Part shown: piece after piece, positions 35,379 through 51,296 of the stretch
Numbering within the stretch: the stretch's first letter is position 1
Layout: every line of letters starts with the position of its first letter
Translations under genes and position numbers: made by a program
Notes under the pieces: generated by a model
What the model was told of the DNA's origin: nothing
Database searches by the model: none
The model's input: the letters and a program-made list of their open reading frames with translations, nothing else
Assembly: GCA_016937995.1 (NCBI GenBank)
Contig: JAFGVM010000016.1
Span: 101,224 to 165,223, forward strand
DNA length: 64,000 nt
Direction: 5' to 3'
Source of the DNA: Candidatus Delongbacteria bacterium
GTDB taxonomy: Bacteria > UBA4055

Positions 35379-35387
35379 AATGCTCTC

Positions 35388-36983
35388 CTAGTCTGAAACA
35401 TTTAAATATTGGATCTTTCCGTCTTTAACACTTACAAAATCGGGAATTATCTTGAATTTCATTTTGTTCGATCTAAGTATTTCCTTATAACTCATGATCT
35501 CCGGTAAAGAAATACTTTTTAAAGAAAATAAAACATTGTTTGCCTCTTCGACCTTCATTATGTCAATCAGGTATTTAATGTTACCCAAAACTGCATAATT
35601 GCCGATATTTTTTCCTAAATATTCATGATTGGTATCAATAAAACCGGTGATCATCATTCCCTCATTTGCCAATTCTGTATCCAAGTTGACCAAAGATTTA
35701 GAAATATCATCAATACCAACAATTACTGTGTTATTAAGAAAAAATTTCATTTTCCTCAACAGCAATATCCTCCAGGCGAACATTAATGAACCGCTGAATA
35801 CCAACATAAGAAAGAGAATAGCTCTGGAAAAAGCAACATTTCTCATAAAAAAAGTTATACTTATCACGGTCAGTGAAATAAAGAACATTGACTTTAAAAA
35901 TTGCCGGTAAGAGTGTTTCATCGAGGTATAAACACTATTCAGCAGAAACACTGTTATGATTATAAATGTATATATGACCGAAACACTGAGATACATTTCA
36001 ATTTTTATCGATGAATAGCCGATCTCTCTGTTTATACCCAGAATGTACATTAGAGGTGTATAGGCAGCAATAGCAAGTACTAATCCACCAAAATATGATG
36101 CAATATCGATAATCGGAAGAATAAATTTATTCAGGAATATCCGGCCAACTGACATTGAATATGCTGTAAAGATCGCCAATTCAAGTATTATCTGAAAAAA
36201 TATCGAATATCTGGAAGAATAATTCTTATTAACAAATATTTTCATTGAACTGTAAAAATATTTTCTAAGCTTAATCCTGTCTTTTTTTGAGCTTTGTCCC
36301 CTAAAATGGATTATTTCTCCAATAGGCACATATTCGATCTTGTAACCCATTTTTTTGATCTGATAACAAAAATCTATATCCTCCCCATACATAAAATAAT
36401 CTTCCGGCATGTAAGTACCTTCATTCAAAATCTCGCGCCGGAATAGCATAAATGAACCCGAAACCGCATCGACCTCTGACACAAGATCATCGTCTATGTA
36501 AAGCAGATTATAGGCTGAAAATAATCTGGAGTTATGAAATACCCTGGCAAGGCCGGAAATATGACAAAAGGAATTCCAGGCGGTCGGAAATGATCTATGG
36601 GATGAAGGATCAATATTACCTTCAGGTCCAATTATTTTGCATGTAACAAGACCTGTTTTAGGGTTGGTCTTAAGATGATCTATCAATAACTTTATTGTTC
36701 TTTCTTTTACGATCGTATCAGGATTCAGGATAAGTACAAAATCCCCTTTGGCGATCTTTAGACCCTGATTATTGGCTTTTGCAAATCCCACATTAGCTTC
36801 ATTGAATATATATGTAATATCACTGAAGCGTGATGTGATATATTCCTTACTATCATCTTTGGAAGCGTTATCGATCACAATTATCTCGTAAGAAAGATCT
36901 GAAACGGTTCTCTTTACAGAATGAATTGTATTCTCAAGAAAGTACTTAACGTTATAATTTACTATTATGACCGAAAGATCCAT
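35388..36983 (-). CDS. Family-2 glycosyltransferase fused to a C-terminal multi-TM domain.
   Basis: MDLSVIIVNYNVKYFLENTI...IIVIDNASKDDS is a GT2 signature. DxD-like region. Then ~6 TM helices. Confidence 0.7.
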   Translation of the reverse strand: MDLSVIIVNYNVKYFLENTIHSVKRTVSDLSYEIIVIDNASKDDSKEYITSRFSDITYIFNEANVGFAKANNQGLKIAKGDFVLILNPDTIVKERTIKLLIDHLKTNPKTGLVTCKIIGPEGNIDPSSHRSFPTAWNSFCHISGLARVFHNSRLFSAYNLLYIDDDLVSEVDAVSGSFMLFRREILNEGTYMPEDYFMYGEDIDFCYQIKKMGYKIEYVPIGEIIHFRGQSSKKDRIKLRKYFYSSMKIFVNKNYSSRYSIFFQIILELAIFTAYSMSVGRIFLNKFILPIIDIASYFGGLVLAIAAYTPLMYILGINREIGYSSIKIEMYLSVSVIYTFIIITVFLLNSVYTSMKHSYRQFLKSMFFISLTVISITFFMRNVAFSRAILFLMLVFSGSLMFAWRILLLRKMKFFLNNTVIVGIDDISKSLVNLDTELANEGMMITGFIDTNHEYLGKNIGNYAVLGNIKYLIDIMKVEEANNVLFSLKSISLPEIMSYKEILRSNKMKFKIIPDFVSVKDGKIQYLNVSD

Positions 36984-36989
36984 TGTACA

Positions 36990-37712
36990 TTAACTCTTTT
37001 TTCCGAATAATTTTGGAAATCTTAATTTCCATACCATAAAAATAGCTTCTTTTACAATATGCTTTCCCATCTTTGAAACACCATCTATCCTGTCAGTGAA
37101 CACTATCGGTATTTCCTTGATCTTAAATCCCTTTTTCCATGATCTGTAGTGCATTTCTATCTGAAAAGAATAACCGTTAGAATGTATATCATCCAGTTTT
37201 ATCGACTCAATGACTTTTCTCTTAAAACATTTAAATCCTGAAGTTGCATCTTTTATCGGCATTCCGGTTATCATACGAGTGTATAATGAAGCTCCCATGC
37301 TCAGTATCAACCTTCTTAGCGGCCAGTTCACCACATTTACTCCCTGAATATATCTTGATCCTATGACCAGATCATAATCTGCTACTGATTCAATTAATCT
37401 TAGAACATCTTTGGGATCATGTGAAAAATCACAATCCATTTCTATTATCAGATCGTAATCCTTATTTAAAGCAAACCTAAAACCCTCGATATAAGCAGTT
37501 CCCAGGCCAAGTTTTCCCTCCCTTTCGATCAGGTTAACTCTTTTCTCCGATCCGTAATTCGTTTTTACGAATTCTCCTGTTTTATCCGGAGAATTATCAT
37601 CGACTATTAAAATATCAATGTTGTCATCAAGATCTAAAACCGTATTAATCATCTTACCAACATTTTCGATCTCATTATACGTCGGAATTATCACTATGGC
37701 TTTATCGGTCAT
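36990..37712 (-). CDS. Polyprenol-phosphate (dolichol-P-mannose-synthase-like) glycosyltransferase, GT2.
   Basis: AIVIIPTYNEIENV...ILIVDDNSPDKTG...GLGTAYIEGF, typical of DPM1/Ppm1-like enzymes. 240 aa. Confidence 0.75.
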   Translation of the reverse strand: MTDKAIVIIPTYNEIENVGKMINTVLDLDDNIDILIVDDNSPDKTGEFVKTNYGSEKRVNLIEREGKLGLGTAYIEGFRFALNKDYDLIIEMDCDFSHDPKDVLRLIESVADYDLVIGSRYIQGVNVVNWPLRRLILSMGASLYTRMITGMPIKDATSGFKCFKRKVIESIKLDDIHSNGYSFQIEMHYRSWKKGFKIKEIPIVFTDRIDGVSKMGKHIVKEAIFMVWKLRFPKLFGKKS

Positions 37713-38171
37713 TTATAATTTACTTCCCATTTTTTTGAATTCAATTAACTTTTGCTTCAGATCATCATTGTTCAATGCCAATATCTGAACTGCAGTTATT
37801 GCAGCGTTTCTTGCACCTGCGTTTCCTATTGCTAAAGTCGGAACAGGAACACCTGCAGGCATTTGTACCATAGATAGTAACGCATCCAGACCATCCATTG
37901 CACCACCCTTCATAGGAACACCAAGTACAGGTAAGACAGTATGGGCAGCAATAACTCCACCCAGATGAGCTGCCATTCCAGCTGCTGCAATTATTATTTT
38001 AACACCGTTCTTATCCGCGTTTTTTGAAAATTCACTCACTTCTTCAGGGTTTCTATGTGCTGACATTATTTTAACATCATAACTGATACCGAAGTAATTC
38101 AAATATGTTTCACAGTTTTTCATAGTTTCAGCATCACTTTTGCTACCCATTACAATTACAACTTCAGACAT
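37713..38171 (-). CDS. purE: N5-carboxyaminoimidazole ribonucleotide mutase PurE.
   Basis: VVIVMGSKSD...SAHR...IIAAAGMAAHLGGV...GVPV motifs. 152 aa. Confidence 0.85.
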   Translation of the reverse strand: MSEVVIVMGSKSDAETMKNCETYLNYFGISYDVKIMSAHRNPEEVSEFSKNADKNGVKIIIAAAGMAAHLGGVIAAHTVLPVLGVPMKGGAMDGLDALLSMVQMPAGVPVPTLAIGNAGARNAAITAVQILALNNDDLKQKLIEFKKMGSKL

Positions 38172-38406: not shown

Positions 38407-41397
38407 ATGAGTAATACTTTTACAAAAAAAGATCAGGAAATTTTACTTAAACAGGATTTCATTGAAGAGCCTTTTAGTAAGCTAATGAAAAAAAGAATAC
38501 ACGAAATTCTGTTGATCTGCAGTAAATATGATAAATTCATGCTCGAAGAAGACGGAAGGATCGATGAACAAATATTCCAGGAGTATGTATCAATAAATCT
38601 GAGATATCCTCCTGTATTCACTCAGGTATCAAATCAAACTGAAGCATTTGAAAAACTGAAAGAAAAAGATTTTGATCTCATTATAACAATGGTTAATCTG
38701 GGTGATATTTTACCATTCGAACTCTCTGAAAAGATAAAAAAAGCTTACCCTGCAATTCCTATTGTCGTCCTTACACATTTTTCACGAGAAGTCTCCAACT
38801 TTCTATACAACAAAGATCTATCTCACATTGATTATGTTTTTTCATGGCTGGGAGATTCAAGTATAATGCTTGCAATAATAAAGTTAATAGAAGATTCAAT
38901 GAATGTCGAGCATGACGTCAGGGAGGTTGGGGCGTATGCTATTATCCTTGTTGAAAATTCTATTCGATACTATTCAAGTTACTTACCCAGCATGTATAAA
39001 ATCCTTTTCAATCAAACTCAAGCCTTGATGAAAGAGGGGTTAAATGAGCATCAGAAAACGATGAGAATGAGAGCACGCCCTAAAATAGTTCTTGCGAACA
39101 ATTATGAAAAAGCAATCGAGCTTTATGAAAAATATAAAGAAAATATACTTGGTGTTATATCTGACATTTCTTACGATATAAATGGTAAAAATGACGATGA
39201 AGCTGGCTTGAAATTATGTAGATTTATCAGAAATGAAAATAAATATTTACCGATATTATTACAATCATCTCAATCAAGGCATAAAGATGAAACTGAATCA
39301 ATGAATGCGGCCTTCATTAATAAAAATTCAAAAAATCTTTTGAATAAATTAAGAAAATATATCAGGACTAACTTTGGATTTGGTGATTTTGTTTTTGTTG
39401 ATCCCCAGACGAATGAAGAAATCGGTAAAGCATCAGACCTTCAAAGCTTACAGCATAAACTCGAAATAGTACCATTAAGCTCTTTTGAATACCATGCTGA
39501 TAACAACCATTTCTCAAAGTGGTTCAAAGCAAGAGCGCTTTTTACTTTGGCAGACCTGATAAAGCATAAGAAGCAAAATGATTTTAAAAGTGTTGAAGAT
39601 ACAAGAGATTTCGTAATCAATATTATTAAAAGTTACCGAATCAGCACAGGTAGAGGAACAATTGCAACTTTTGAAAAAGATAATTTTGACAACTATACCA
39701 GATTTGCCCGTATAGGTAAGGGTTCGTTGGGAGGTAAAGGCAGAGGTTTAGCCTTCATAGATTCATTTTTGAAAAGAAATAAAATGACATTTAAGTATGA
39801 CAACCTTACGATCAGTGTACCTAAAACAATTATTATCTCCACTGATGTATTCGAAGAATTCATGGAACTGAACGACCTATATCCCATTGCATTATCCAAT
39901 TCTTCTGATGAATGGATCCTGAAATTTTTTCTTTTGGGAGATATGCCGCCACACCTAAAAGAAAAATTACATTGCATTTTATCTTACTTTAAAGATCCCC
40001 TGGCTATAAGATCATCCAGTTTGCTAGAGGATTCATATCATCAGCCTTTTGCAGGAGTATATTCAACTTACATGATCTCGAACAATAATGTAAATATTAA
40101 TACTCGGGTCACTGAATTATGTCAGGCAATTAAATCTGTTTATGCCTCAACGTTTTTCAAGATCAGTAGAAATTATATGGCTGCAACAAATAATTTGATC
40201 GATGAAGAAAAAATGTCCGTTATTATTCAAGAAATGAGTGGACAAAAATATGTTACAGATGAAAATTCTGAAAGATTCTATCCTTCATTATCGGGTGTTG
40301 CCAGATCTTTGAATTTTTATCCTATAGGTAAAGAAAAACCGAAAGAAGGTATAGTTAACATAGCTGTAGGATTAGGTAAAACTATTGTTGATGGAAATAC
40401 TTCATTAAGATTCTCTCCTAAGTATCCAAAAAAAATACTACAATTATCAAATTCTGAAATGGCTTTAAGGAATACTCAGAAAAAATTTTATGCCCTGAAT
40501 ATGTCAAAACCTTTCATTCCTACTGTTAACGAAAGTGATAATCTTTCTTTATTGAAGATCAACGAGGCAGAAAAAGATAAATCTTTAAAAATGATGGTTT
40601 CTACTTATGATGCCCAGAATGAAGTTCTCAGAGATGGGGATCAGGATACCGGAAAAAAAATTGTGACATTCGCACCTATCCTGAAATATGGTATGATACC
40701 TTTGCCTGAAGTAATAAGAGATATTTTAGATCTGGGAGCAAAAGAAATGAATACTCCGGTAGAAATTGAATTTTCAATGCAAATAAGTACTGACAAAGAA
40801 ATTCCTCATAAATTTCATTTTTTACAGATCAGACCGATCGTTCAAGGACTTGAATTCAGTGACATCACTATATCTGAGGAAGAAATACAAAACTCGATCA
40901 TATCTTCGAATTCTACTCTCGGGAACGGAACAATTGATGATATTACTGACATAGTTTACATAAAACCTGAAAAATTCGATCCTTCTAAAACAGAAGAGAT
41001 TGCAAATACATTAGAAAAATTAAATGAAAAATTCATCAAAAAAGACAGGCATTTTATTTTAATTGGTCCCGGCAGATGGGGTTCTTCTGACCCTTGGCTT
41101 GGTGTTCCAGTTAAATGGGCACAGATATCTAAGGCAAAGGTCATTGTGGAGCATGGATTAAAAAAGTTTCATATCGATCCTAGTCAGGGATCTCATTTTT
41201 TCCAGAATATCACACATTTGAAAGTCATTTATATGACAATCAATCCTTATCTGAATGATGGGAGGATAGATATTGAGAAACTTAATTCTATAAAGAGTAT
41301 TTATGAGAACGATCTTTTAAGACATATACGATTCGATAAAAAATTGTTTCTCAAAGCGAATGGTGCTACCGGAGAAGCGGTTGTTATCATTAAATAA
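38407..41397 (+). CDS. 996-aa protein: tandem receiver-like (REC/pseudo-REC) domains, a central PPDK_N-type ATP-grasp (PEP-synthase/pyruvate-phosphate-dikinase nucleotide-binding) domain, and a degenerate PEP-utiliser-like C-terminal module.
   Basis: N-terminus ILLICSKYDK...DFDLIITMVNLGD...IPIVVLTH and a second KIVLANNYEKAIE...ILGVISDISYD...LPILLQSS are REC-like. GGKGRGLAFID plus LAIRSSSLLEDSYHQPFAGVYSTY...VYASTF...MSVIIQEM match PPDK_N blocks. The C-terminal FILIGPGRWGSSDPWLGVPV...SQGSHFF parallels GGRTSHAAIIARELGIPAVVG but lacks the His. Confidence 0.6.
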   Translation: MSNTFTKKDQEILLKQDFIEEPFSKLMKKRIHEILLICSKYDKFMLEEDGRIDEQIFQEYVSINLRYPPVFTQVSNQTEAFEKLKEKDFDLIITMVNLGDILPFELSEKIKKAYPAIPIVVLTHFSREVSNFLYNKDLSHIDYVFSWLGDSSIMLAIIKLIEDSMNVEHDVREVGAYAIILVENSIRYYSSYLPSMYKILFNQTQALMKEGLNEHQKTMRMRARPKIVLANNYEKAIELYEKYKENILGVISDISYDINGKNDDEAGLKLCRFIRNENKYLPILLQSSQSRHKDETESMNAAFINKNSKNLLNKLRKYIRTNFGFGDFVFVDPQTNEEIGKASDLQSLQHKLEIVPLSSFEYHADNNHFSKWFKARALFTLADLIKHKKQNDFKSVEDTRDFVINIIKSYRISTGRGTIATFEKDNFDNYTRFARIGKGSLGGKGRGLAFIDSFLKRNKMTFKYDNLTISVPKTIIISTDVFEEFMELNDLYPIALSNSSDEWILKFFLLGDMPPHLKEKLHCILSYFKDPLAIRSSSLLEDSYHQPFAGVYSTYMISNNNVNINTRVTELCQAIKSVYASTFFKISRNYMAATNNLIDEEKMSVIIQEMSGQKYVTDENSERFYPSLSGVARSLNFYPIGKEKPKEGIVNIAVGLGKTIVDGNTSLRFSPKYPKKILQLSNSEMALRNTQKKFYALNMSKPFIPTVNESDNLSLLKINEAEKDKSLKMMVSTYDAQNEVLRDGDQDTGKKIVTFAPILKYGMIPLPEVIRDILDLGAKEMNTPVEIEFSMQISTDKEIPHKFHFLQIRPIVQGLEFSDITISEEEIQNSIISSNSTLGNGTIDDITDIVYIKPEKFDPSKTEEIANTLEKLNEKFIKKDRHFILIGPGRWGSSDPWLGVPVKWAQISKAKVIVEHGLKKFHIDPSQGSHFFQNITHLKVIYMTINPYLNDGRIDIEKLNSIKSIYENDLLRHIRFDKKLFLKANGATGEAVVIIK

Positions 41398-41413
41398 TTG
41401 TCAGGAGTTTTAA

Positions 41414-42265
41414 ATGACATTATGTTTTTTTGTTACTGATCTTCATGGTAGGAAAGAGCGTTATGAAAAATTTTTCTCTAAAATTTATTCAGAGAAACCT
41501 GATGTGGTTTTTTTAGGAGGAGATCTCTTTCCAAATTCATTCTCAAATGAATTTAAGAATAAAGATTTCCTTGGAGATTTCTTAGTTGAAGAGCTAAAAA
41601 AAATAAAAAAGAATTTAGGTAAAAAATATCCCAGAATTTTTGTTATACTTGGGAATGACGATGGGCGATCTCAAGAATCCGATATGATCAAATACGAAAA
41701 TCAAGGAATATGGCAATATATTCATAATAAAAAGATCAGACTTAATGAATATTCCATTTACGGTTACTCATACATTCCACCAACTCCTTTCAGTTTGAAA
41801 GACTGGGAAAAATATGATGTCTCAAGATTTGTTGATATTGGCTGTGTCAGCCCTGAAGAGGGTTCAAGAACAATTGAAGTAAGTGATCATGAGAAAAAAT
41901 ATTCTACTATCAAAGATGACCTTAATGAATTATTTCAAGATGATGATCTAAGTAAAGCTGTTATTTTATTCCATTCACCGCCTTATAAAACAAAACTCGA
42001 CAGAGCTGATCTTGATGGAAAAATGGTCGATTTTGTTCCTTTGGATGTTCATGTCGGCAGTATTGCAATACAACGATTTATAACAGACAGATCACCTTAT
42101 TTAACACTTCATGGCCATATACATGAATCATCAAGATTGACCAATAGCTACCTTGATAATATTAACAATACTACAATGCTAAATGCCGCACATGACGGCA
42201 ATGAATTGTCTCTAATCAAATTTCAATTGGAAGACCTTACAACTATACAAAGAGAGATATTGTAA
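41414..42265 (+). CDS. Calcineurin-like metallophosphoesterase.
   Basis: FFVTDLHGRKERY...VVFLGGDLFPN...ILGNDD...ILFHSPP...GHIHE are the canonical MPE metal-binding blocks (DxH, GD, GNHD/E, H, GH). 16 bp downstream of the 996-aa gene. Confidence 0.65.
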   Translation: MTLCFFVTDLHGRKERYEKFFSKIYSEKPDVVFLGGDLFPNSFSNEFKNKDFLGDFLVEELKKIKKNLGKKYPRIFVILGNDDGRSQESDMIKYENQGIWQYIHNKKIRLNEYSIYGYSYIPPTPFSLKDWEKYDVSRFVDIGCVSPEEGSRTIEVSDHEKKYSTIKDDLNELFQDDDLSKAVILFHSPPYKTKLDRADLDGKMVDFVPLDVHVGSIAIQRFITDRSPYLTLHGHIHESSRLTNSYLDNINNTTMLNAAHDGNELSLIKFQLEDLTTIQREIL

Positions 42266-42273
42266 AAGTATAA

Positions 42274-45200
42274 CTACTTTTTATTAACAAATAGAGGTCT
42301 TGCTGCATCAGATACTGCTGATATCTTCATAGCATAGCTGCTCTTGGTCTTTATATCATCATTGTTAATTATGTGAATATCCAGAATATTTTCCAGCTTA
42401 TAACCTGTGTTTAAAAAATTGTAATAACCTAAACTCGTATTCCATGCATCAAGCCAGATCAATAAACCTTCTTTTTGAACCTTATTTCCAATAAAATGTA
42501 TTAAAATATCAATATCGCTGTCAGGCCTTGAAGTAGCATTCTTAGCGCTACCGAAAATATACAGCTCTTTCACTCCAAACCTTTTTGCATCCAATGATTC
42601 GGCTATTTTTTCAACTGCTCTAAGTCTCCATTTCCAATGATAGTCATCTTTTTTATCTATGTTAATTTTGTTAACATCCTTTGTTCGGAAATGATAATGC
42701 TCCCTTGAATTATATTCTTCATTAATATCTCGAATTAATGCTGTTGCTTTATCTGATTCAGCATTCATATATATCTGGATCTCTCTACCTTTAGTTACAT
42801 TTTTGACATCAATTACTTTGATCACATTTGATAGATCTGAATATTTTGGTAATAGATCTTTAAAAATATTTGTACTCTCAGTGAAGAATTCCTCATTAAA
42901 AATAATATCACGATTGTCTGAATACAATGGTAAATACCTTATTCCCGACTCAACAAGATCAAGAAAAAAATGTGTTCCGAAGGAAAGGTCCGGAACGTAA
43001 TCTTTATTCTTCTTAGCTATTTCTATTAACATGCTGGTGTTACTAATATCAGAGTATGAAACAGACACTCCTAATTTGATATCACCCCGACTTCCCCATC
43101 TTCCAGGACCCATTAGTATAAATTGTTTTTTTGGCAATATTTTATTTAACAACCCAATTGCCTTTCCAACATTTTTCATCTCCTCCAATGAAGACAGATT
43201 GCTATATCCCACAGGATCTACATACACAACATGAGATATTCCTTGAACTAAACCATTCGAAATGAATTTATTCGCGGTAAATAATATCTCATTTTGTTTA
43301 ATGTCTTCAGGACAGGTAATTGGTTTGGAATCATAACCCAGATTCTGAGGACGGCATTGTAATAAGTAAAGATCATCTCCATCATGTGCAAACTCAATAT
43401 CAACCGGGTGTTCATATTTTTGTTTAAGTGTGTATAAAATATCGTTCATCTCTTTCATGAAAACCTGGTCTGATAATAAACCATCAAATGTAACTGTAAA
43501 ATTTTCTTTTTTGTAATCAGTTCCAAATTTTTTTGGAGGTAGCAGGTATTTCTCAGAAATTACAGAAACCAGCTTGTTGATTATAGGATAGTTCTTCCCA
43601 CATTTTTTTATAAGTTCATCGATCTTTTTAGTCTCGAATTTTTTAGTTTTAAGATTTATAACGTCGATCTGTTTAGGAGAATAACGAATTTTTTCATCGA
43701 TCGATACATTAACTCTGAGATCAGAATTCTTTGGTGATATAAGTATCGGGTAATCATCACTGGTCCTGTCAACAGCTCTTGTTCCCAATCCCGGAACTAA
43801 TCTTATTAAACCATCTTCTCTTTTGATCCTGCTTGACCATCGATATTCATTATTGCTGAAAGCAACTCCTGCGAAAGCCGGGAAAAAATAATCCCCAACT
43901 TTTTTACCTACAACCTGCTGGATCATTATACCCATTTGTTCGTTGTAATCAAGCAGTTCGTGCTCAGCTCTGTATTGTATAGGGTCAGGTCCAAAAGTTG
44001 AAGCATATACTTCTGAGATTGCATCCATCAGATCGGTCATTCTTTTTTCTTTTGGTCCCTGATTGGCAACGAAAAGACTTTTATATTTTCCGGCAAATGC
44101 AGTACCCATCCTATCCTCTAGTAAACTAGAGCTTCTTATTATAAGTGGAGTGTCCCCAAGATCATCAAGACACTTTGAGAGTTCTTTTATCATTTCTGAA
44201 GAGAAGGGAGAATTTTTAAAGACATGAATAACATATGGATACTCCTGTCGAACGAGACCTATATCCTTATATTTCTGCTCCATTATGTCTTCAAGGTTAT
44301 TATATTTCATAAAATCAAGTATTCCATCAGCTGTTATATACCACGTTTTAGGGATTTTAAGGTTTTTAACCTTTTTAGCATTGTTCGAATCTTCTAACAG
44401 AATATGTGACGCCACGATAAGACCTGCACTTTTTCCACCAAGTTTTCCGAGACTGTGTTCAGGATGAATAAGATTATTTGTTAATTTGTAAAATGAGTCC
44501 ACATTCAGATGCTTTTTTGCAACATCAATAAAGGTTCTCTGATCAGACATGAATTTCCTTATCAAAGCTACAGTAAAACTTTTCTGTCTTAATCCGGACA
44601 ACTCCAAACCCTGCTCTGCAAGGAAATGATACTTCTCCAATGCACTAATGATCTCACTTACTGTAGTTGCATTATTATTCAGTATATTCGCCATAAAAGC
44701 AGAACTTTCCTGCTTTATCCACTTATGCACATTTGTTAAGATTTCTTCCTCGGTCAAGTGTCTTTCGGCAACAGAAAATACATCTGTCAAAGTCATCATA
44801 GAGTCAATGTCTTCTAAAGCTTTAAATGGGAAATTTTTTTCTTTAACACATTCATCAGGAATACTGAATTTTTCTAAAAGCGATTCGGCTTCTTTTACTC
44901 CGTATATACAAAGAAAATTTATCATTTTTCTTGTTATTTTGACAGCAAAACCTTTGTCAGTCCTTGTAAGAAGATCCAAAATGGATCTCCATTCACTTTG
45001 AGTTGAATTCTCTATATTCCCATGATTCCCAAAAACAGTTCTTAACTGCTGGTGAAGAACATATAGCTCAAACTGCTTTCCAATCGTCTCAATAAGTGTA
45101 AGTTCTTCATTGAGAAATGGTCCAATATCTGCTTGAGGTCTTTCTTCGATATAATAGATATTGATCTGCCCAGTCACTTTTCCCTGAACAGTTATTTGTA

Positions 45201-45450
45201 CCTCCTGCATCCAGGGAGTCTCTTCAAATTCTTCAATTTGGAAGATCTTATTTTTATATAGTAATTGTGCTTTACATATTTCCGGGAACTGCCACCCCAT
45301 GGGAAGTATCGTTACAATGTTATAACATACTTCATCAAAGGAAAGTTCTCTATCATTTAATAAATTCTGGATCTCATACAAACATTTGGATTCTTTCGCA
45401 CGTTCATTAAGATCATTTATTAGTCTGGAAAGCAATTTATCATTCTTCAT
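42274..45450 (-). CDS. 1058-aa protein: N-terminal sensor-like region, PPDK_N-type ATP-grasp domain, degenerate PEP-utiliser-like module, and a C-terminal polymerase-beta-type (minimal) nucleotidyltransferase domain.
   Basis: LGKLGGKSAGLIVASHILLE plus LIIRSSSLLEDRMGTAFAGKYKSLF...VYASTF...MGIMIQQV are PPDK_N blocks. FILMGPGRWGSRGDIKLGVSV...SFGTHFF is the module shared with the two paralogs. The C-terminal LYIFGSAKNATSRPDSDIDILIHF is an NTase fold motif (GS...DxD). Confidence 0.6.
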   Translation of the reverse strand: MKNDKLLSRLINDLNERAKESKCLYEIQNLLNDRELSFDEVCYNIVTILPMGWQFPEICKAQLLYKNKIFQIEEFEETPWMQEVQITVQGKVTGQINIYYIEERPQADIGPFLNEELTLIETIGKQFELYVLHQQLRTVFGNHGNIENSTQSEWRSILDLLTRTDKGFAVKITRKMINFLCIYGVKEAESLLEKFSIPDECVKEKNFPFKALEDIDSMMTLTDVFSVAERHLTEEEILTNVHKWIKQESSAFMANILNNNATTVSEIISALEKYHFLAEQGLELSGLRQKSFTVALIRKFMSDQRTFIDVAKKHLNVDSFYKLTNNLIHPEHSLGKLGGKSAGLIVASHILLEDSNNAKKVKNLKIPKTWYITADGILDFMKYNNLEDIMEQKYKDIGLVRQEYPYVIHVFKNSPFSSEMIKELSKCLDDLGDTPLIIRSSSLLEDRMGTAFAGKYKSLFVANQGPKEKRMTDLMDAISEVYASTFGPDPIQYRAEHELLDYNEQMGIMIQQVVGKKVGDYFFPAFAGVAFSNNEYRWSSRIKREDGLIRLVPGLGTRAVDRTSDDYPILISPKNSDLRVNVSIDEKIRYSPKQIDVINLKTKKFETKKIDELIKKCGKNYPIINKLVSVISEKYLLPPKKFGTDYKKENFTVTFDGLLSDQVFMKEMNDILYTLKQKYEHPVDIEFAHDGDDLYLLQCRPQNLGYDSKPITCPEDIKQNEILFTANKFISNGLVQGISHVVYVDPVGYSNLSSLEEMKNVGKAIGLLNKILPKKQFILMGPGRWGSRGDIKLGVSVSYSDISNTSMLIEIAKKNKDYVPDLSFGTHFFLDLVESGIRYLPLYSDNRDIIFNEEFFTESTNIFKDLLPKYSDLSNVIKVIDVKNVTKGREIQIYMNAESDKATALIRDINEEYNSREHYHFRTKDVNKINIDKKDDYHWKWRLRAVEKIAESLDAKRFGVKELYIFGSAKNATSRPDSDIDILIHFIGNKVQKEGLLIWLDAWNTSLGYYNFLNTGYKLENILDIHIINNDDIKTKSSYAMKISAVSDAARPLFVNKK

Positions 45451-45457
45451 ATTACAC

Positions 45458-47185
45458 CTATTTTTTTATAACACCTGATCTGCTTTTACCGTCAACAATC
45501 GTTTTTAATGCTTTATCATATCTTACATGTGAAACAAATTCCAAATCTGTTACATGGTCCAGCGAATTGATCCAATTCCAATCTGTCGGAAAATCATTCC
45601 TCAGAGGAAGATAAAAATATTGAATTTTAAAACTTGTCAGATTATGGAAAAAATGAGAACCCTGACTGAATTCAATATTCATATTTTCTAGACTTGCTTC
45701 AACAATGATCGAAGCTCCTGATATCTGACTCCAGGTTACAGGTATACCCAACCAATGATCTGAACTTCCCCATCTACCGTAACCAATTAAAAGATACGGC
45801 CTCTTTTCGCTTAGCAATTTCGAATTGATCTCTGCAATTTCTTTTGCGATCAATTCTGTCTTTGCAGGATCAAAAGTTTCATGTTTAACAAAAACAATAT
45901 CCTTAATATTGTTGCTTATTCCATTCCCAAGAACATGCTCCGATGCAATTATAGTATCATTTGATGACAACTCTGACCTTTCTAACCTTACATCAGTATC
46001 ATTTACCACCATCTGCCTTACTTGTAGTAAACCGAATCTGTAGGGTTTCTCTGATGAACTGTCTTTGGAAAAAGTCATAGCAAATTCTATCTCAACTGGA
46101 GAATCCATTTTTTCTTCACATACCTTCATCAGTTTTATTAATAGATCGTTAATGGGTATCAGTTCCAATGACAAAATTGGGGCAAAATTGAGAACTCTGG
46201 CCCCGTCCCTTCCTGAGCCGATTGTCAATCTGTCTGTTGTATGATCATATGTGGAAACTAGATTTGAAAGTGTCTCATCTTCTTCAGCAGAATGTATATT
46301 TTCGATCAGCATATATTCTGTTTCATTGATGGGATCATAAGCTGGAGGATCGCCCATATTCACAGACCAGAACTCAGTTTGAGTTAACTTCAACATTTCA
46401 TTAACTGATCCGAAAGGGGGTTTTTTATGTGGATACTTAGGACAGTATATCCATGATAATCCTCCGTCTACAATAGTTTTTCCAAGTCCGAATGCCAAAT
46501 TTACTACACCTTCTTCAGGTAAAGTTTCATTTATGGGATAATAGTTGTATGATTTACCTACACCCGACAAATTAGGATAGAACTTATCTCCATATCTGTT
46601 TCCAATGATCTCCTGGATTATTACAGCCATCTTCTCTTTTCTAATCTCCAGACCTGATGCGGTAAAATATTCCTTTGCATCTTTGAAGAAAGTAGAGGCA
46701 TATACATACTTGATCCCTTCGACCATCTTTGTGAATCTTGTATCTGAGTCGAACTGATTATTCGGTATCATTTTTGTCCCGTAGATCCCGGCAAAAGGTT
46801 TGTACTTTGCATCTTCCAGCATACTTGAAGATCTTATTGCAAGCGGAACATTCACTTTTGAAATTAATTCTCTCAGATCACCCAGAACTGAAAAAGGAAG
46901 CGAAGCATTCTGGAATGCAATTGCAATTTCATCATCACTTTTATCAGAATATGCAATATCGTAGAGGTCGTTCTGTGTCATAAAGTCATCAAAAACACCT
47001 GTTCTCAACACAGTAAAATTAGGTATGTTGACCATAATTTCATCAAATTCAGAAAAATCACTTTCCTTCAATATATTATCAAAATAAATTAAACTGCTTG
47101 CCTTTCCTCCAACTTCCCCTTCTCCAATGAATGAAATATTTTGTTCATCATCGAAAAATATTCTATTAAATTCATTTATCTTCAT
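45458..47185 (-). CDS. 575-aa PPDK_N-type ATP-grasp protein with a degenerate PEP-utiliser-like C-terminal module. Paralog of the two above.
   Basis: IGEGEVGGKASSLIYF. LAIRSSSMLEDAKYKPFAGIYGTKMI...VYASTF...MAVIIQEI. C-terminal YLLIGYGRWGSSDHWLGIPV...SQGSHFF. Starts 18 bp after the stop of the upstream gdh gene on the same strand. Confidence 0.6.
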   Translation of the reverse strand: MKINEFNRIFFDDEQNISFIGEGEVGGKASSLIYFDNILKESDFSEFDEIMVNIPNFTVLRTGVFDDFMTQNDLYDIAYSDKSDDEIAIAFQNASLPFSVLGDLRELISKVNVPLAIRSSSMLEDAKYKPFAGIYGTKMIPNNQFDSDTRFTKMVEGIKYVYASTFFKDAKEYFTASGLEIRKEKMAVIIQEIIGNRYGDKFYPNLSGVGKSYNYYPINETLPEEGVVNLAFGLGKTIVDGGLSWIYCPKYPHKKPPFGSVNEMLKLTQTEFWSVNMGDPPAYDPINETEYMLIENIHSAEEDETLSNLVSTYDHTTDRLTIGSGRDGARVLNFAPILSLELIPINDLLIKLMKVCEEKMDSPVEIEFAMTFSKDSSSEKPYRFGLLQVRQMVVNDTDVRLERSELSSNDTIIASEHVLGNGISNNIKDIVFVKHETFDPAKTELIAKEIAEINSKLLSEKRPYLLIGYGRWGSSDHWLGIPVTWSQISGASIIVEASLENMNIEFSQGSHFFHNLTSFKIQYFYLPLRNDFPTDWNWINSLDHVTDLEFVSHVRYDKALKTIVDGKSRSGVIKK

Positions 47186-47203: not shown

Positions 47204-48490
47204 TTAGACCCATCCACGAGCTTTACATGCATCCACTACTTTCTCTATAGCCATTATATTTGCAGATACTCTCATTGTCATACTGTTCTTAGTCGAAAAC
47301 TGGTAAACTGAATTGAATGCATATGTCATTTTCTGATCCAATTTCCCCAAGACTTCATCTTTCGTCCAGAAGTAGTTCATATTACATTGTACCTGCTCAA
47401 AATAACTGCAGATAACACCGCCTGCATTAGCCAGAAAATCAGGAATTAAAAAGATATCCTTACTCTCAATTATTTTATCCGCTTCCGGAGTGGTCGGTCC
47501 GTTTGCTCCTTCAGCTATTATTTTAACTTTTGATGATATATTTTCCACATTCTCTTCAGTGATCTGATTTTCTATTGCTGCCGGTATTAAGATATCGACT
47601 TCCTGGAAGAGCCATTGATCACCATCCAGGATATCATACCCCAACTCTTTTGCTCTGGCTTTATCTATACCGCCAAATTGATCTGTAATGTTTTTCAGCT
47701 CTGTTAAATTAACACCACTTTCTTTTTTAAATGAGAAACTTTTTTCATCTTTCTGATCCCAACATGATACACAGATAACTTTACCACCCATTTGAGTATA
47801 AAGCTCGATCGCATACTGACTTACATTTCCAAATCCCTGAATACTCATTGTTGTGTCTTTTGCTTTTAAACTTAACTTTTTCAAAGCTTCTCTTATGGTA
47901 ATGATCACACCATAACCTGTTGCCTCAGTTCTGCCTAATGACCCACCCATTCCTACAGGTTTTCCGGTTATGAATCCCGGCTGTTTCTTTCCTGTTATTA
48001 TTTCATACTCATCCAGCATCCACAACATATGCTGGGGATTTGTCATTACATCAGGTGCTGGAATATCAGTGAAAGGTCCTACATTTTTATAAATTTGTCG
48101 AACCCAACCTCTACAAATTTGTTCCTGCTCCCTTTTGGTTAAGTTATGTGGATCACAGATCACACCACCTTTACCTCCTCCCAGAGGAATATCAGCAACT
48201 GATGTTTTCCAAGTCATCCACATTGATAAAGCTCTTACAGTATCAATTGTTTCCTGAGGATGAAACCTTATTCCTCCTTTTGCAGGACCTCTTGCATCGT
48301 TGTGAATACATCTGAAACCCCGGAAAACTTTTTTACTTCCATCATCCATAGTAATAGGAATGCTGAAATGGAATTCTTTCATCGGGGTTCTCAATAAATC
48401 ACGGGTTGCTTCATCTAATTCCAGCATTTCAGCTGCAGAATCAAATTGTTTTTTTGCCATTTCAAATGCATTGAATGATTTTTTTTCCAT
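47204..48490 (-). CDS. Glutamate dehydrogenase (428 aa, Glu/Leu/Phe/Val dehydrogenase family).
   Basis: IPLGGGKGGVICDP (GGGKGG catalytic-Lys region) and a Rossmann GFGNVSQYAIE. Typical GDH size. Confidence 0.85.
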   Translation of the reverse strand: MEKKSFNAFEMAKKQFDSAAEMLELDEATRDLLRTPMKEFHFSIPITMDDGSKKVFRGFRCIHNDARGPAKGGIRFHPQETIDTVRALSMWMTWKTSVADIPLGGGKGGVICDPHNLTKREQEQICRGWVRQIYKNVGPFTDIPAPDVMTNPQHMLWMLDEYEIITGKKQPGFITGKPVGMGGSLGRTEATGYGVIITIREALKKLSLKAKDTTMSIQGFGNVSQYAIELYTQMGGKVICVSCWDQKDEKSFSFKKESGVNLTELKNITDQFGGIDKARAKELGYDILDGDQWLFQEVDILIPAAIENQITEENVENISSKVKIIAEGANGPTTPEADKIIESKDIFLIPDFLANAGGVICSYFEQVQCNMNYFWTKDEVLGKLDQKMTYAFNSVYQFSTKNSMTMRVSANIMAIEKVVDACKARGWV

Positions 48491-48648: not shown

Positions 48649-49989
48649 CTAGTATCCCTGATCGATCATAGCATCGGCTACTTTTTTGAATCCTGCAATA
48701 TTTGAACCTTTAACATAGTTAACAAATCCATCAGCTTGTGTACCATATTTAACACCCGCAGCATGAATTGAGCTCATGATCCATTTAAGTTTCTCATCAA
48801 CCTCTTCCTTGATCCACGATAGTTTCATTGAATTTTGTGACATTTCAAGACCAGATACTGCAACTCCACCTGCGTTTGCAGCTTTGCCTGGACCGAAAGC
48901 AATTTTGTTTGCAATAAAATAGTTTACCGCATCTGCTGTACAACCCATATTTGATGTTTCTATCACATACTTACAGCCATTATCTACAAGATTTTTTGCA
49001 TCTTCATCATTAAGTTCATTCTGAATAGCACACGGGTATGCCATATCAACCTTGACCTTCCACGGTTTTTCACCAGGAAAGAATTTTGCATTCGGGAATT
49101 TTTCCGCATAAGGAGCAACTACATCATTATTAGAAGCTCTCAATTCAAGCAGATAATTAAATTTTTCTTCAGTGTTCACACCATCTTCATCGAGTATGTA
49201 TCCATCAGGTCCTGAAATTGTAAGAACTTTTGCTCCAAGTTCTGTAGCTTTTATTGCACATCCCCATGTTACGTTACCGAATCCTGAAAGAGAAACTGTT
49301 TTACCTTCCATTGTCTCATTTTTATGTTTAAGCATTTGATCTGCATAATAAACTGCTCCGAATCCAGTAGCCTCAGGTCTTATCAATGATCCACCCCAGT
49401 TCAATCCTTTGCCTGTTAGAACACCGGTATTTTCCGAACGAAGTCTTTTGTATTGTCCGTACATAAAACCTATCTCTCTTCCACCAACACCGATATCACC
49501 GGCAGGTACATCAGTTTGAGGACCAATATATTTTTGAAGTTCAGTCATAAAAGAACGGCAAAATCTCATTATCTCATTGTCAGATTTACCTTTTGGATTA
49601 AAATCTGAACCACCTTTACCACCACCCATAGGTAAAGTTGTAAGACTGTTCTTGAATATTTGTTCGAATCCCAAGAATTTTAATCCACCTAAAGTAACAC
49701 TCGGATGAAATCTCAGTCCACCCTTATAAGGTCCGATAGCATTATTAAATTGTACTCTGTAACCTTTGTTGACCTGAATGTCACCGTTATCATCTTCCCA
49801 TTCCACTTTGAACAGAAAAGCTCTGTCAGGTTCAGTTATTCTGTCAAGTATCTTGGCCTGAAGATAAGAGGGGTTTTCGTTGACCATGTCAATGACTGAT
49901 TCGATCACTTCTCTTGCTGCCTGGATGAATTCTGGTTGAGCGGGGTTTCTCCTCTCAAGCTCAGCCATGAACTTGTCGATGTTATACAT
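48649..49989 (-). CDS. gdhA: Glutamate dehydrogenase (446 aa, GdhA-like).
   Basis: MYNIDKFMAELERRNPAQPEFIQAAREV N-terminus and LPMGGGKGGSDFNPKGKS resemble hexameric NADP-GDH of the GdhA type. GFGNVTWGCAIKATELGAKV is the Rossmann motif. Confidence 0.85.
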   Translation of the reverse strand: MYNIDKFMAELERRNPAQPEFIQAAREVIESVIDMVNENPSYLQAKILDRITEPDRAFLFKVEWEDDNGDIQVNKGYRVQFNNAIGPYKGGLRFHPSVTLGGLKFLGFEQIFKNSLTTLPMGGGKGGSDFNPKGKSDNEIMRFCRSFMTELQKYIGPQTDVPAGDIGVGGREIGFMYGQYKRLRSENTGVLTGKGLNWGGSLIRPEATGFGAVYYADQMLKHKNETMEGKTVSLSGFGNVTWGCAIKATELGAKVLTISGPDGYILDEDGVNTEEKFNYLLELRASNNDVVAPYAEKFPNAKFFPGEKPWKVKVDMAYPCAIQNELNDEDAKNLVDNGCKYVIETSNMGCTADAVNYFIANKIAFGPGKAANAGGVAVSGLEMSQNSMKLSWIKEEVDEKLKWIMSSIHAAGVKYGTQADGFVNYVKGSNIAGFKKVADAMIDQGY

Positions 49990-50165: not shown

Positions 50166-51296
50166 TTAAATTGTATCTTTTGTTAGAATATTTATTAGTT
50201 TTTCAGCTGCGGCTATTGGTGATATCTTACTTTCTATCACATCCTTTTTAACTGAACTTAAAACCTGTTGCACTTCAGTAGAATTATAAAATATATTTTC
50301 AAGTGTTTGTGTGATCGTGGTTTTCAACCATTGTTCAAGCTGATATTTCCGTTTATTTTGAAATTTTCCATTTGAATTCATTATACTATGATGCTTTATG
50401 ATGATCTTCCATAATTCATCAATTCCTTTATTTTCGTAGGAAGAGATCGCTATAACAGGAACCTGCCAGTCAGGATCAAAGTTAAGAGAATAGTGAGTTG
50501 CGTTCTCAAGTTCTTGTTTACAGAGATCAGCTTTGATCACATTGTCACCGTCAGACTTTGAAACAGCTATCGCATCTGCCATTTCCATAATACCTTTCTT
50601 TATCCCCTGAAGTTCATCTCCAGCTCCGGCAATTTGCAGTAAAAGAAAAAAATCCACCATCGAATGAACCAGGACTTCAGACTGTCCCACACCTACAGTT
50701 TCAACAAGTATGATATCATAACCGGCTGCTTCACATAGTATTATAGCCTCTCTTGTGGCTCTGTTCACACCCCCTAAAAAACCTGAGGTTGCTGAAGGAC
50801 GGATGAAAACATCATTCTTACTGGAAAGTTTATCCATTCTTGTTTTATCACCCATCAGACTACCTCCTGAAAGGTTACTGCTTGGATCAACTGCCATTAC
50901 AGCTACTTTTTTCTTCTGTTCAAGAAGATAAAGTCCGAAAGTTTCGATAAAAGTACTTTTACCTACACCTGGAATACCGGTAATACCAATCCTGATAGAT
51001 TTGCCTGAATATGGTAAACATCTGTTTATAATTTTTTTTGAAAGGTCGTTATCTTCTTTCTTCTTACTCTCGATAAGGGTTAGAGCTCTTCCCAAAATTA
51101 CTCTATCACCATTCAATATACCTGTCAGGAAGTCTTCGAGATCTATCTTGCGTTTTTTTTTACTTATAAAGATATCCAGTTTATCATCGGAAATACCTTC
51201 AGGTTTAACTATACCTGCATTAATATTTAATGATGTAAGTTTATCATTTGCCAGTTGATCTATTGATCTGCCGGTCTTATTTTTGTTGCTCATCAC
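50166..51296 (-). CDS. meaB: MeaB/ArgK-family GTPase (methylmalonyl-CoA-mutase-associated G protein). The true start may be an internal Met.
   Basis: GITGIPGVGKSTFIE P-loop. VAVMAVDPSS. GDKTRM switch. AIVVSKSDG-like NKxD block (AVSKSDGDN). The stop of the upstream histidine-kinase gene overlaps the listed start by 20 nt. Confidence 0.75.
   Translation of the reverse strand: MMSNKNKTGRSIDQLANDKLTSLNINAGIVKPEGISDDKLDIFISKKKRKIDLEDFLTGILNGDRVILGRALTLIESKKKEDNDLSKKIINRCLPYSGKSIRIGITGIPGVGKSTFIETFGLYLLEQKKKVAVMAVDPSSNLSGGSLMGDKTRMDKLSSKNDVFIRPSATSGFLGGVNRATREAIILCEAAGYDIILVETVGVGQSEVLVHSMVDFFLLLQIAGAGDELQGIKKGIMEMADAIAVSKSDGDNVIKADLCKQELENATHYSLNFDPDWQVPVIAISSYENKGIDELWKIIIKHHSIMNSNGKFQNKRKYQLEQWLKTTITQTLENIFYNSTEVQQVLSSVKKDVIESKISPIAAAEKLINILTKDTI

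Follow-up and report, generated by a model that had tools for sequence, protein, structure and literature searches.

Carbon and nitrogen metabolism meet at glutamate dehydrogenase (GDH). To our knowledge, the bacterial enzyme has no described dedicated covalent regulator of the kind that glutamine synthetase has in GlnE and isocitrate dehydrogenase in AceK. GlnE and GlnD are nucleotidyltransferases of the pol-beta superfamily that reversibly nucleotidylate an enzyme or a regulator of nitrogen assimilation according to nitrogen status. Phosphoenolpyruvate (PEP) synthase, pyruvate, phosphate dikinase (PPDK) and rifampin phosphotransferase share a PPDK_N ATP-grasp domain with the proteins analysed here, and VadK of Mycobacterium tuberculosis (Rv1127c) is described as a kinase descended from PPDK, which phosphorylates itself on His and regulates methylcitrate-cycle enzymes (PMC13400623). 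Here we examine a 64,000 nt stretch of Candidatus Delongbacteria DNA (the window, whose positions serve as coordinates unless a locus number is given) in which three genes, K996, K1058 and K575, encode ATP-grasp proteins of 996, 1058 and 575 aa beside two GDH genes. The linkage of this family to GDH genes is near-obligate and is found in bacteria of more than ten phyla.

Organisation of the locus and its conserved linkage to glutamate dehydrogenase genes

On the reverse strand of the window a gene for a 428-aa GDH, termed GDHa (47204-48490), is followed after 18 nt by K575 (45458-47185) and after a further 7 nt by K1058 (42274-45450), and on the forward strand K996 (38407-41397) is followed after 16 nt by a gene for a 283-aa metallophosphoesterase (MPE, 41414-42265). 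The three large genes and their spacings, as given in a preliminary description of the locus, agree with the coordinates of the open reading frames (ORFs). Each of the three K proteins is 100% identical to an annotated protein of a Candidatus Delongbacteria metagenome-assembled genome (MAG; P0391, P0121 and P0001 for K996, K1058 and K575), and the public labels of the family include hypothetical, 'PEP/pyruvate-binding domain-containing', 'phosphoenolpyruvate synthase', 'pyruvate, phosphate dikinase', 'nucleotidyltransferase domain-containing' and 'CheY-like'.

GDHa, the first gene of the gdh–K575–K1058 unit, encodes a Pfam ELFV dehydrogenase of the archaeal or RocG type and is an ordinary hexameric GDH, which matches the Thermococcus and Pyrococcus enzymes in the PDB at E 1e-122 and has the GGGKGG catalytic loop. 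It scores 473 against the NCBIfam GdhA_Arch equivalog cut-off of 750 and so belongs to a distinct clade. Within the operon-linked clade (147 sequences) the residues Cys112-Asp113-x-His115, Gln153-His154, Trp244, which sits in a small insertion (residues 243-249), and Tyr285 are invariant and differ from those of the archaeal GDH 1euz and of the second GDH of the window, which makes them, from the alignment, candidate contact or modification sites. This second enzyme, GDHb (446 aa, 48649-49989, reverse strand), is of the NADP type found in E. coli (NCBIfam PRK14030, 791 bits against a cut-off of 743), and Pfam recognises ELFV dehydrogenase domains in it as in GDHa.

We scanned species-representative genomes with K575 as anchor and obtained 80 loci spanning Delongbacteria, Ignavibacteria, Acidobacteriota, Zixibacteria, Cloacimonadota, Chloroflexota, Aminicenantes, Eisenbacteria and others, the ratios below counting those loci with enough flanking sequence. 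K575 is directly preceded by GDHa in 64/71 loci and directly followed by K1058 in 74/74, frequently with start/stop overlaps of 4 nt, so that the operon of gdh and two PPDK_N genes, the second with a nucleotidyltransferase, which had been suggested from this one sequence proves to be a gene order strongly conserved across many phyla. Clustering of all neighbouring ORFs at these loci showed nothing that recurs beyond GDH, the K genes and the MPE. For a reciprocal scan we took as anchors 80 metagenomic proteins related to GDHa (68-74% identity) and found a member of the K family directly downstream in 58 of 65 loci, with K575 first in 27 and K1058 following directly, with no K575, in 31; among the seven exceptions, five still have K1058 or the MPE close by. 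This makes K1058 the core partner of the GDHa clade and K575 a frequent addition. In some lineages the two occur as fusions of ~1630 aa, which argue that K575 and K1058 act together.

Orthologues of K996 with 54-57% identity are present in Bacteroidota, Saprospiraceae, Riflebacteria, Spirochaetales and Lentisphaeria. Among ten of them on long contigs, eight immediately adjoin GDH genes, mostly of ~445 aa, which we liken to GDHb by size only, and once of 1046 aa. The recurrent layout in Bacteroidota is a GDH gene on the reverse strand, a protein of 1158-1230 aa, a K996 orthologue of 990 aa and a GDH gene on the forward strand. The 1158-1230-aa protein joins a K1058-type GAF sensor and a K996-type receiver region to the ATP-grasp/His core, and its gene lies always just upstream of the 990-aa orthologue and between the two GDH genes (L173:4505-7981, L175:4278-7970, L178:2447-6004, L180:2519-5995). 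Thus the K575, K1058 and K996 loci together describe one family of several architectures linked to GDH genes of three families or size classes, and GDHb is probably part of the same functional neighbourhood.

A number of further arrangements were seen at these loci. A Chloroflexus MAG contains two extra paralogues of 770 and 848 aa (L018:191-2503, reverse strand, and L018:16138-18684, forward strand) that are without a nucleotidyltransferase and have different N-termini, at a locus with three further GDH genes. A three-gene complex of NuoE-like, NuoF-like and Fer4_20+Pyr_redox_2+molybdopterin proteins recurs beside K996 genes (L174:62-6107, L175:12650-18794, L177:9016-14947, L178:10601-14979), with a GDH gene also present in three of the four loci, and may represent an NAD(P)H-linked redox partner of GDH. 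On a Lentisphaeria contig the gene for a GAF-containing PtsP (Enzyme I-Ntr) adjoins that of the large 1046-aa GDH (L176:2166-7690), which is divergent from the K996 orthologue; the gene on the opposite flank encodes a 445-aa GDH.

A catalytically plausible ATP-grasp core in a distinct branch of the dikinase family

All three K proteins match Pfam PPDK_N far above its cut-off of 27 bits (K996 132, K1058 197, K575 114), and these matches place the ATP-grasp domain at residues 440-813 of K996 (39724-40845, forward strand, 132.5 bits), residues 336-705 of K1058 (43336-44445, reverse strand) and residues 24-397 of K575, where it stands alone before the C-terminal module. Over the region in common K996 is 42% identical to K575 and 26% identical to K1058. 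The blocks GGK, RSSSxxED, FAG.Y, VYASTF, IIQ, EIEF and LQ.R are invariant in the three paralogues, in 58 orthologues of K575 and in 56 of K1058, which extends well beyond this locus the shared ATP-grasp motifs listed in the preliminary description. As these motifs also line up with their counterparts in E. coli PpsA (hhalign probability 89.5%), the ATP-grasp domains of both K575 and K1058 look catalytically competent, judged on sequence.

The three K proteins are a distinct uncharacterised branch of the PEP-synthase, PPDK and rifampin-phosphotransferase ATP-grasp family. Curated NCBIfam models for PEP synthase, PPDK, rifampin phosphotransferase and PigC/RedH reach at best 67 bits against cut-offs of ~500-1350; the PEP synthase models stay at or under 67 bits against ~600-1060, and the rifampin phosphotransferase model NF041857 gives 21-32 bits against 999. 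A PEP-utilizers_C TIM-barrel (PEP/pyruvate-binding) domain was not found by Pfam in any K protein, and there is no rifampin-binding domain, with K575 running from the ATP-grasp domain (to ~residue 397) straight into its C-terminal module. Pfam and NCBIfam likewise detected no acceptor-substrate, carbohydrate- or drug-binding domain, and GDH genes are the only conserved neighbours to recur in this respect, so that the analogy with polymer or antibiotic phosphorylation drawn earlier is not supported. Sequence similarity to PDB entries is confined to part of the ATP-grasp domain (E 0.02). A PADLOC search with defence-system protein models returned generic partial matches to the nucleotidyltransferase and the metallophosphoesterase only, and membership of an anti-phage defence system was rejected on that ground.

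The C-terminal module carries an invariant histidine

Directly after the ATP-grasp domain, where dikinases carry their His domain, the K proteins have a module of ~175 residues (residues 823-996 of K996, 40873-41394, forward strand; residues 716-912 of K1058, 42715-43305, reverse strand; residues 398-575 of K575). The family signatures GxGRWG(S/T) and SxG(S/T)HFF lie within it, as GPGRWGS and SQGSHFF in K996 and as GPGRWGS and SFGTHFF in K1058, and GxGRWGS and SxG(S/T)HFF are invariant in the three paralogues and across the 58 and 56 orthologues. The preliminary description had seen this shared block in all three proteins, as we do, but had taken the modules to be 'His-less', with no His aligned between paralogues. 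His930 of K996 (codon 41194-41196), His827 of K1058 (42970-42972, reverse strand) and His511 of K575 (45653-45655, reverse strand) in fact align inside the SxG(S/T)HFF block, and this residue is invariant in all orthologues examined and in five architectures, including the Chloroflexus paralogues and the Bacteroidota architecture. The modules are therefore not 'His-less'. A profile of the module, searched against 1.84 billion cluster representatives, matched 2,293 of them, whose lengths group at the architectures found here.

The relation of the module to the phospho-His swivel domain of dikinases is less clear. The Pfam PEP-utilizers mobile domain (PF00391) has no match in the K proteins even at E<=10, a regular-expression search did not find the GGxTSH phospho-His motif, and a profile search of PDB sequences with the module gave no swivel-relevant match. 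Alignment by hhalign to the swivel domains of PpsA and PtsI was not significant, and when 12 swivel sequences from E. coli and plasmid genes were combined into one alignment the probability stayed under 1%, including for versions from which hypothesised insertions had been deleted. The best small local alignment recovers the register proposed in the preliminary description (GRWGS with GGRTCH, LGIPV with LGIPAV), which leaves the canonical His opposite a gap. An alternative register pairs SSDPW with TDPDW, IVE with IVT and SQGSH plus the helix that follows with GGRTCH plus helix; it follows the predicted order of secondary structure, and it matches the (D/N)GxxGxxV at the C-terminus of K575 and K996 to the DGxxGxV that closes the swivel domain. 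The full-length hhalign alignment continues into the first strand of the PpsA swivel domain. Both registers are unproven, and the comparison with phospho-His domains that had been suggested for these modules leaves an invariant His together with a swivel homology that hhalign, Pfam and PDB searches do not support. The sole PDB match of the His block (K575 residues ~491-554, ~45524-45715, reverse strand) is the VAMP7 longin domain (E 0.012); a Tyr stands opposite the invariant His, and the match is probably due to chance.

The predicted structure of K575 is confident (pLDDT 84.6, pTM 0.85) and that of K1058 moderate (pLDDT 74.8). The closest folds are the small-molecule dikinases RPH and HpeI, with a Foldseek match to RPH at E 7e-13, and the alignments to PPDK span 600-700 columns, a length which suggests that in these models they extend across the central domain of PPDK. 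The invariant His begins a helix after a low-confidence loop in the K575 and K1058 models alike, and the GxGRWGS loop is itself of low confidence.

Sensor, receiver, nucleotidyltransferase and phosphoesterase components

The inputs attached to the shared core differ: K1058 has a GAF sensor and K996 a receiver, whereas K575 has no input domain. K996 consists of a degenerate receiver and a second receiver ahead of the PPDK_N-type ATP-grasp domain and the C-terminal His module. Its first receiver-like domain (residues 70-127, 38614-38787, forward strand; Pfam Response_reg, 40 bits against 30.2) has a degenerate acceptor Asp position (IITM) and few positions conserved among 13 orthologues. The second (~residues 176-320, 38932-39366, forward strand), recognised by a weak match to the REC-fold Pfam family OKR_DC_1_N, has an Asp253 (39163-39165) that is invariant in an alignment of 13 K996-type proteins. 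Tandem receivers with partly degenerate acidic pockets, as first described, are consequently an apt account of receiver 1 and not of receiver 2. In the linker that joins the receivers to the ATP-grasp domain (residues 358-410, 39478-39636) there is a weak match to Pfam DUF5752 (E 0.024), which is faint too in the Bacteroidota relative at L173:4505-7981.

K1058 runs from a GAF-fold sensor (residues 1-145, 45016-45450, reverse strand) through a helical linker to the ATP-grasp domain, the His module and a minimal nucleotidyltransferase. The sensor has an invariant ERAKE.C.. motif, and a K1058-type sensor with the motif ERxKEL.C also heads classical histidine kinases at three loci (L039, L076, L079); it is therefore a genuine signal-input domain. 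Cys23 (KE.KCLY) and Cys59 (PEIC) are invariant in the 56 K1058 orthologues and are not kept in all of the histidine-kinase copies, and the pair hints at redox or cofactor sensing. The pol-beta-type nucleotidyltransferase (residues 937-1058, 42277-42642, reverse strand) is matched by Pfam NTP_transf_2 at 29.5 bits against 21 and by Polbeta at 27.4 against 26.9, with the motif formed by G967-S968, S978-D979-I980-D981 and D1024; none of the 56 orthologues varies at G967, S968, D979 or D1024, and D981 is almost invariant. The domain belongs to the minimal MntA/KNT type, with a weak match to the NCBIfam MntA model, and known members of this type put a nucleotide on a protein or a drug and do not cyclise it. 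The N-terminal sensor-like region and the C-terminal nucleotidyltransferase motif attributed to this protein in the preliminary description are thus both present, the latter intact, and the candidate signalling or regulatory role proposed there fits the GAF and REC inputs and the occurrence of the GAF-type sensor on histidine kinases.

The MPE (Pfam Metallophos, 45 bits) has its motifs DLH, GGD, GNDD, H and GHIH intact, corresponding to the DxH, GD, GNDD, H and GHxH pattern, and with GNDD it is not of the PPP-type GDxHG/GNHE variant. In 38/61 loci no more than 700 bp separate an MPE orthologue from the K1058 stop codon, and ~86% of these are convergent. Of the ten K996 loci elsewhere the MPE is found only at the one that also holds a K1058-type gene, and the conserved pairing is therefore of MPE with K1058 and not with K996. 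The calcineurin-like enzyme 16 bp after the 996-aa gene was correctly recognised at the outset, its conserved partner being the 3' end of the 1058-type gene. Of the neighbourhood formed by PPDK_N paralogues, MPE and gdh, whose conservation had been raised as a question, the gdh–K575–K1058 order and the association of MPE with K1058 hold across genomes and the pairing of MPE with the 996-type gene does not.

Flanking genes

Directly upstream of gdhB and on the same strand lie genes for a MeaB-type GTPase (376 aa, 50166-51296, reverse strand) and a hybrid PAS-PAS-PAS/HisKA/HATPase/REC sensor kinase (881 aa, 51277-53922, reverse strand), which overlap by 20 nt and are not conserved at other loci. 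The sensor kinase could be an input to the K996 receiver. Upstream of K996 and on the opposite strand (33612-38171, reverse strand) are purE (AIR carboxylase), two family-2 glycosyltransferase genes, one of whose products carries a CoA_binding_3 domain, and a gene for an S49 signal-peptide peptidase; all are ordinary genes without conserved linkage to the K-protein system. An ORF of 117 aa lies antisense within the K1058 gene (44648-45001, forward strand) and most likely arose by chance. A scan for promoters and terminators found sites no more frequently than in shuffled sequence.

Proposed function and competing explanations

As the K family stands almost always beside GDH genes it is a strong candidate for a dedicated GDH regulator, and with ~2,300 clusters in Acidobacteriota, Bacteroidota, Ignavibacteria, Chloroflexota, Zixibacteria, Cloacimonadota and others it would be a widely distributed one. 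Our preferred reading, to which we assign a probability of roughly 45%, is that the locus encodes a signal-controlled enzyme system dedicated to GDH, which it covalently modifies or otherwise regulates. K575 would work jointly with K1058, and as in PEP synthase, PPDK and rifampin phosphotransferase ATP would be cleaved on the ATP-grasp domain and the phosphoryl group carried on the invariant His. Since no small-molecule acceptor domain is present, we infer that the phosphoryl group would pass to an external acceptor, most likely the neighbouring GDH or a protein that controls it. Systems of the K1058 type might add a second layer, in which the C-terminal nucleotidyltransferase writes a nucleotidyl mark and the adjacent MPE erases phosphate or nucleotidyl marks. 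The rationale for such a system would be to switch or balance co-encoded GDH isoenzymes by nitrogen, carbon or redox status sensed through GAF and REC domains.

A broader form of this proposal, which we hold more tentatively, is a widespread post-translational control of GDH by GAF- or receiver-gated, ATP-dependent writers with a His carrier, one branch of which adds a nucleotidyltransferase as writer and an MPE as eraser, such that isoenzymes are switched on and off. If so, it could be the mechanism behind old reports of reversible inactivation of Bacteroides GDH in vivo and of effects on GDH activity from trans-acting genes downstream of gdhA; the B. fragilis enzyme was reportedly found by Yamamoto et al. 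in 1987 to be reversibly inactivated in vivo. BT1971 and BT1972 of B. thetaiotaomicron, considered as possible members of the family, were dropped from consideration as BT1971 is a catalase.

A number of points weigh against regulation of GDH by this family. Sequence comparison could not show that the C-terminal module is homologous to the phospho-His swivel domain. The MPE is missing from about a third of K1058 loci, and two of the ten K996 orthologues have no GDH gene within 6-8 kb. Orthologues of K575 and K1058 are also 50-57% identical across phyla, and conservation as high as this is more typical of metabolic enzymes than of regulators, although lateral transfer of the module could be an alternative cause.

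It is this conservation, together with the tight operon with a metabolic enzyme and the fact that the nearest folds, RPH and HpeI, are enzymes of this kind, that speaks for the K proteins as small-molecule dikinases in a short metabolic route with GDH, in which a metabolite tied to glutamate, 2-oxoglutarate or NAD(P) would be phosphorylated, as by rifampin phosphotransferase, HpeHI or phenylphosphate synthase, and the MPE would act on the product; two-component dikinases also exist (PMC12167813). Against this, the K proteins have no substrate-binding counterpart of the RIF-binding, HpeH or PEP-utilizers_C domains, the fusion of the core to GAF and REC inputs is unusual in pathway enzymes, and no further pathway gene recurs. 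GDHs of three families or size classes adjoin the family, which points to the enzyme or its activity and not to a single pathway context, and we regard a metabolic route as unlikely. Less likely than this is a non-canonical phosphorelay resembling VadK or PTS-Ntr, in which the phospho-His would be passed to a receiver Asp or another regulator in broad nitrogen control and GDH would be a co-regulated neighbour. The invariant Asp of the K996 receiver, the hybrid PAS histidine kinase upstream within the window and the precedent of VadK all fit this explanation; the adjacency to GDH is however far tighter and more universal than is expected for a mere member of a regulon, no additional conserved partner protein exists and many loci consist of K1058 alone with GDH and lack a REC protein.

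The invariant catalytic motif of the K1058 nucleotidyltransferase, the intact motifs of the MPE and the way in which the MPE gene tracks the nucleotidyltransferase-encoding end of K1058 would also suit a module in which K1058 makes a second messenger or a nucleotidylated metabolite, the MPE degrades it and the ATP-grasp domains supply or sense nucleotides. We consider this quite improbable, and again less likely than a metabolic dikinase, given that the GDH-linked core occurs in K996-type and 1158-1230-aa architectures that have neither nucleotidyltransferase nor MPE, and that the domain is of the minimal MntA/KNT type, whose known members transfer a nucleotide to a protein or a drug, with the NCBIfam MntA match being weak. 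The public annotations 'phosphoenolpyruvate synthase' and 'pyruvate, phosphate dikinase', if correct, would make the K proteins ordinary housekeeping paralogues of these enzymes. This was the case that the preliminary description named as fatal to its own view, and it is rejected here with near certainty as every NCBIfam model stays far below its cut-off (67 bits at best against ~500-1350), both the PEP-utilizers and PEP-utilizers_C domains are absent and PDB similarity covers no more than part of the ATP-grasp domain (E 0.02).

Should regulation of GDH be the correct reading, the ATP-grasp/His core gated by GAF or REC would form a new output class in bacterial signal transduction, thousands of 'PEP synthase / PPDK' annotations would be corrected and the old observations on reversible GDH inactivation would become directly testable.

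Comparison with known systems

The searchable literature yielded no description of the K family or of its linkage to GDH. In comparison with PEP synthase, PPDK and rifampin phosphotransferase the family has no Pfam PEP-utilizers domain, GGxTSH motif, PEP/pyruvate TIM barrel or RIF-binding domain, and has instead its own GxGRWG(S/T) and SxG(S/T)HFF signatures, its fusions to GAF, REC and nucleotidyltransferase domains and its link to GDH. In the split dikinases HpeHI and phenylphosphate synthase the ATP-grasp domain is on one subunit and the swivel and substrate domains on the other, unlike K575 and K1058, each of which has a full ATP-grasp domain plus a His module.

PtsP (Enzyme I-Ntr) resembles the K proteins in combining GAF with a His-carrier logic, but its donor is PEP, used via a TIM barrel, whereas that of the K proteins would be ATP via the ATP-grasp domain, and no gene for an HPr/NPr-like acceptor is conserved near the K genes. 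The nucleotidyltransferase logic of K1058 parallels that of GlnE and GlnD; the target of the latter is however glutamine synthetase or PII and not GDH, they have no ATP-grasp or His module, and their mark is removed by a second nucleotidyltransferase-like or HD domain and not by a metallophosphoesterase.

VadK is, as described, alike in being a dikinase-derived protein that has no part in the central-metabolic role of the dikinase and regulates metabolic enzymes, and by analogy it shows that a PPDK derivative can turn into a regulator of this kind. It differs from the K family as a derivative of canonical PPDK that targets the methylcitrate cycle and for which no GAF, REC or nucleotidyltransferase fusions are reported. 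Measured against all of these systems the domains of the K proteins are of known kinds; what is new is the way in which they are combined, the His module specific to the family and the dedicated link to GDH, and there is a substantial chance that together they constitute a new regulatory system.

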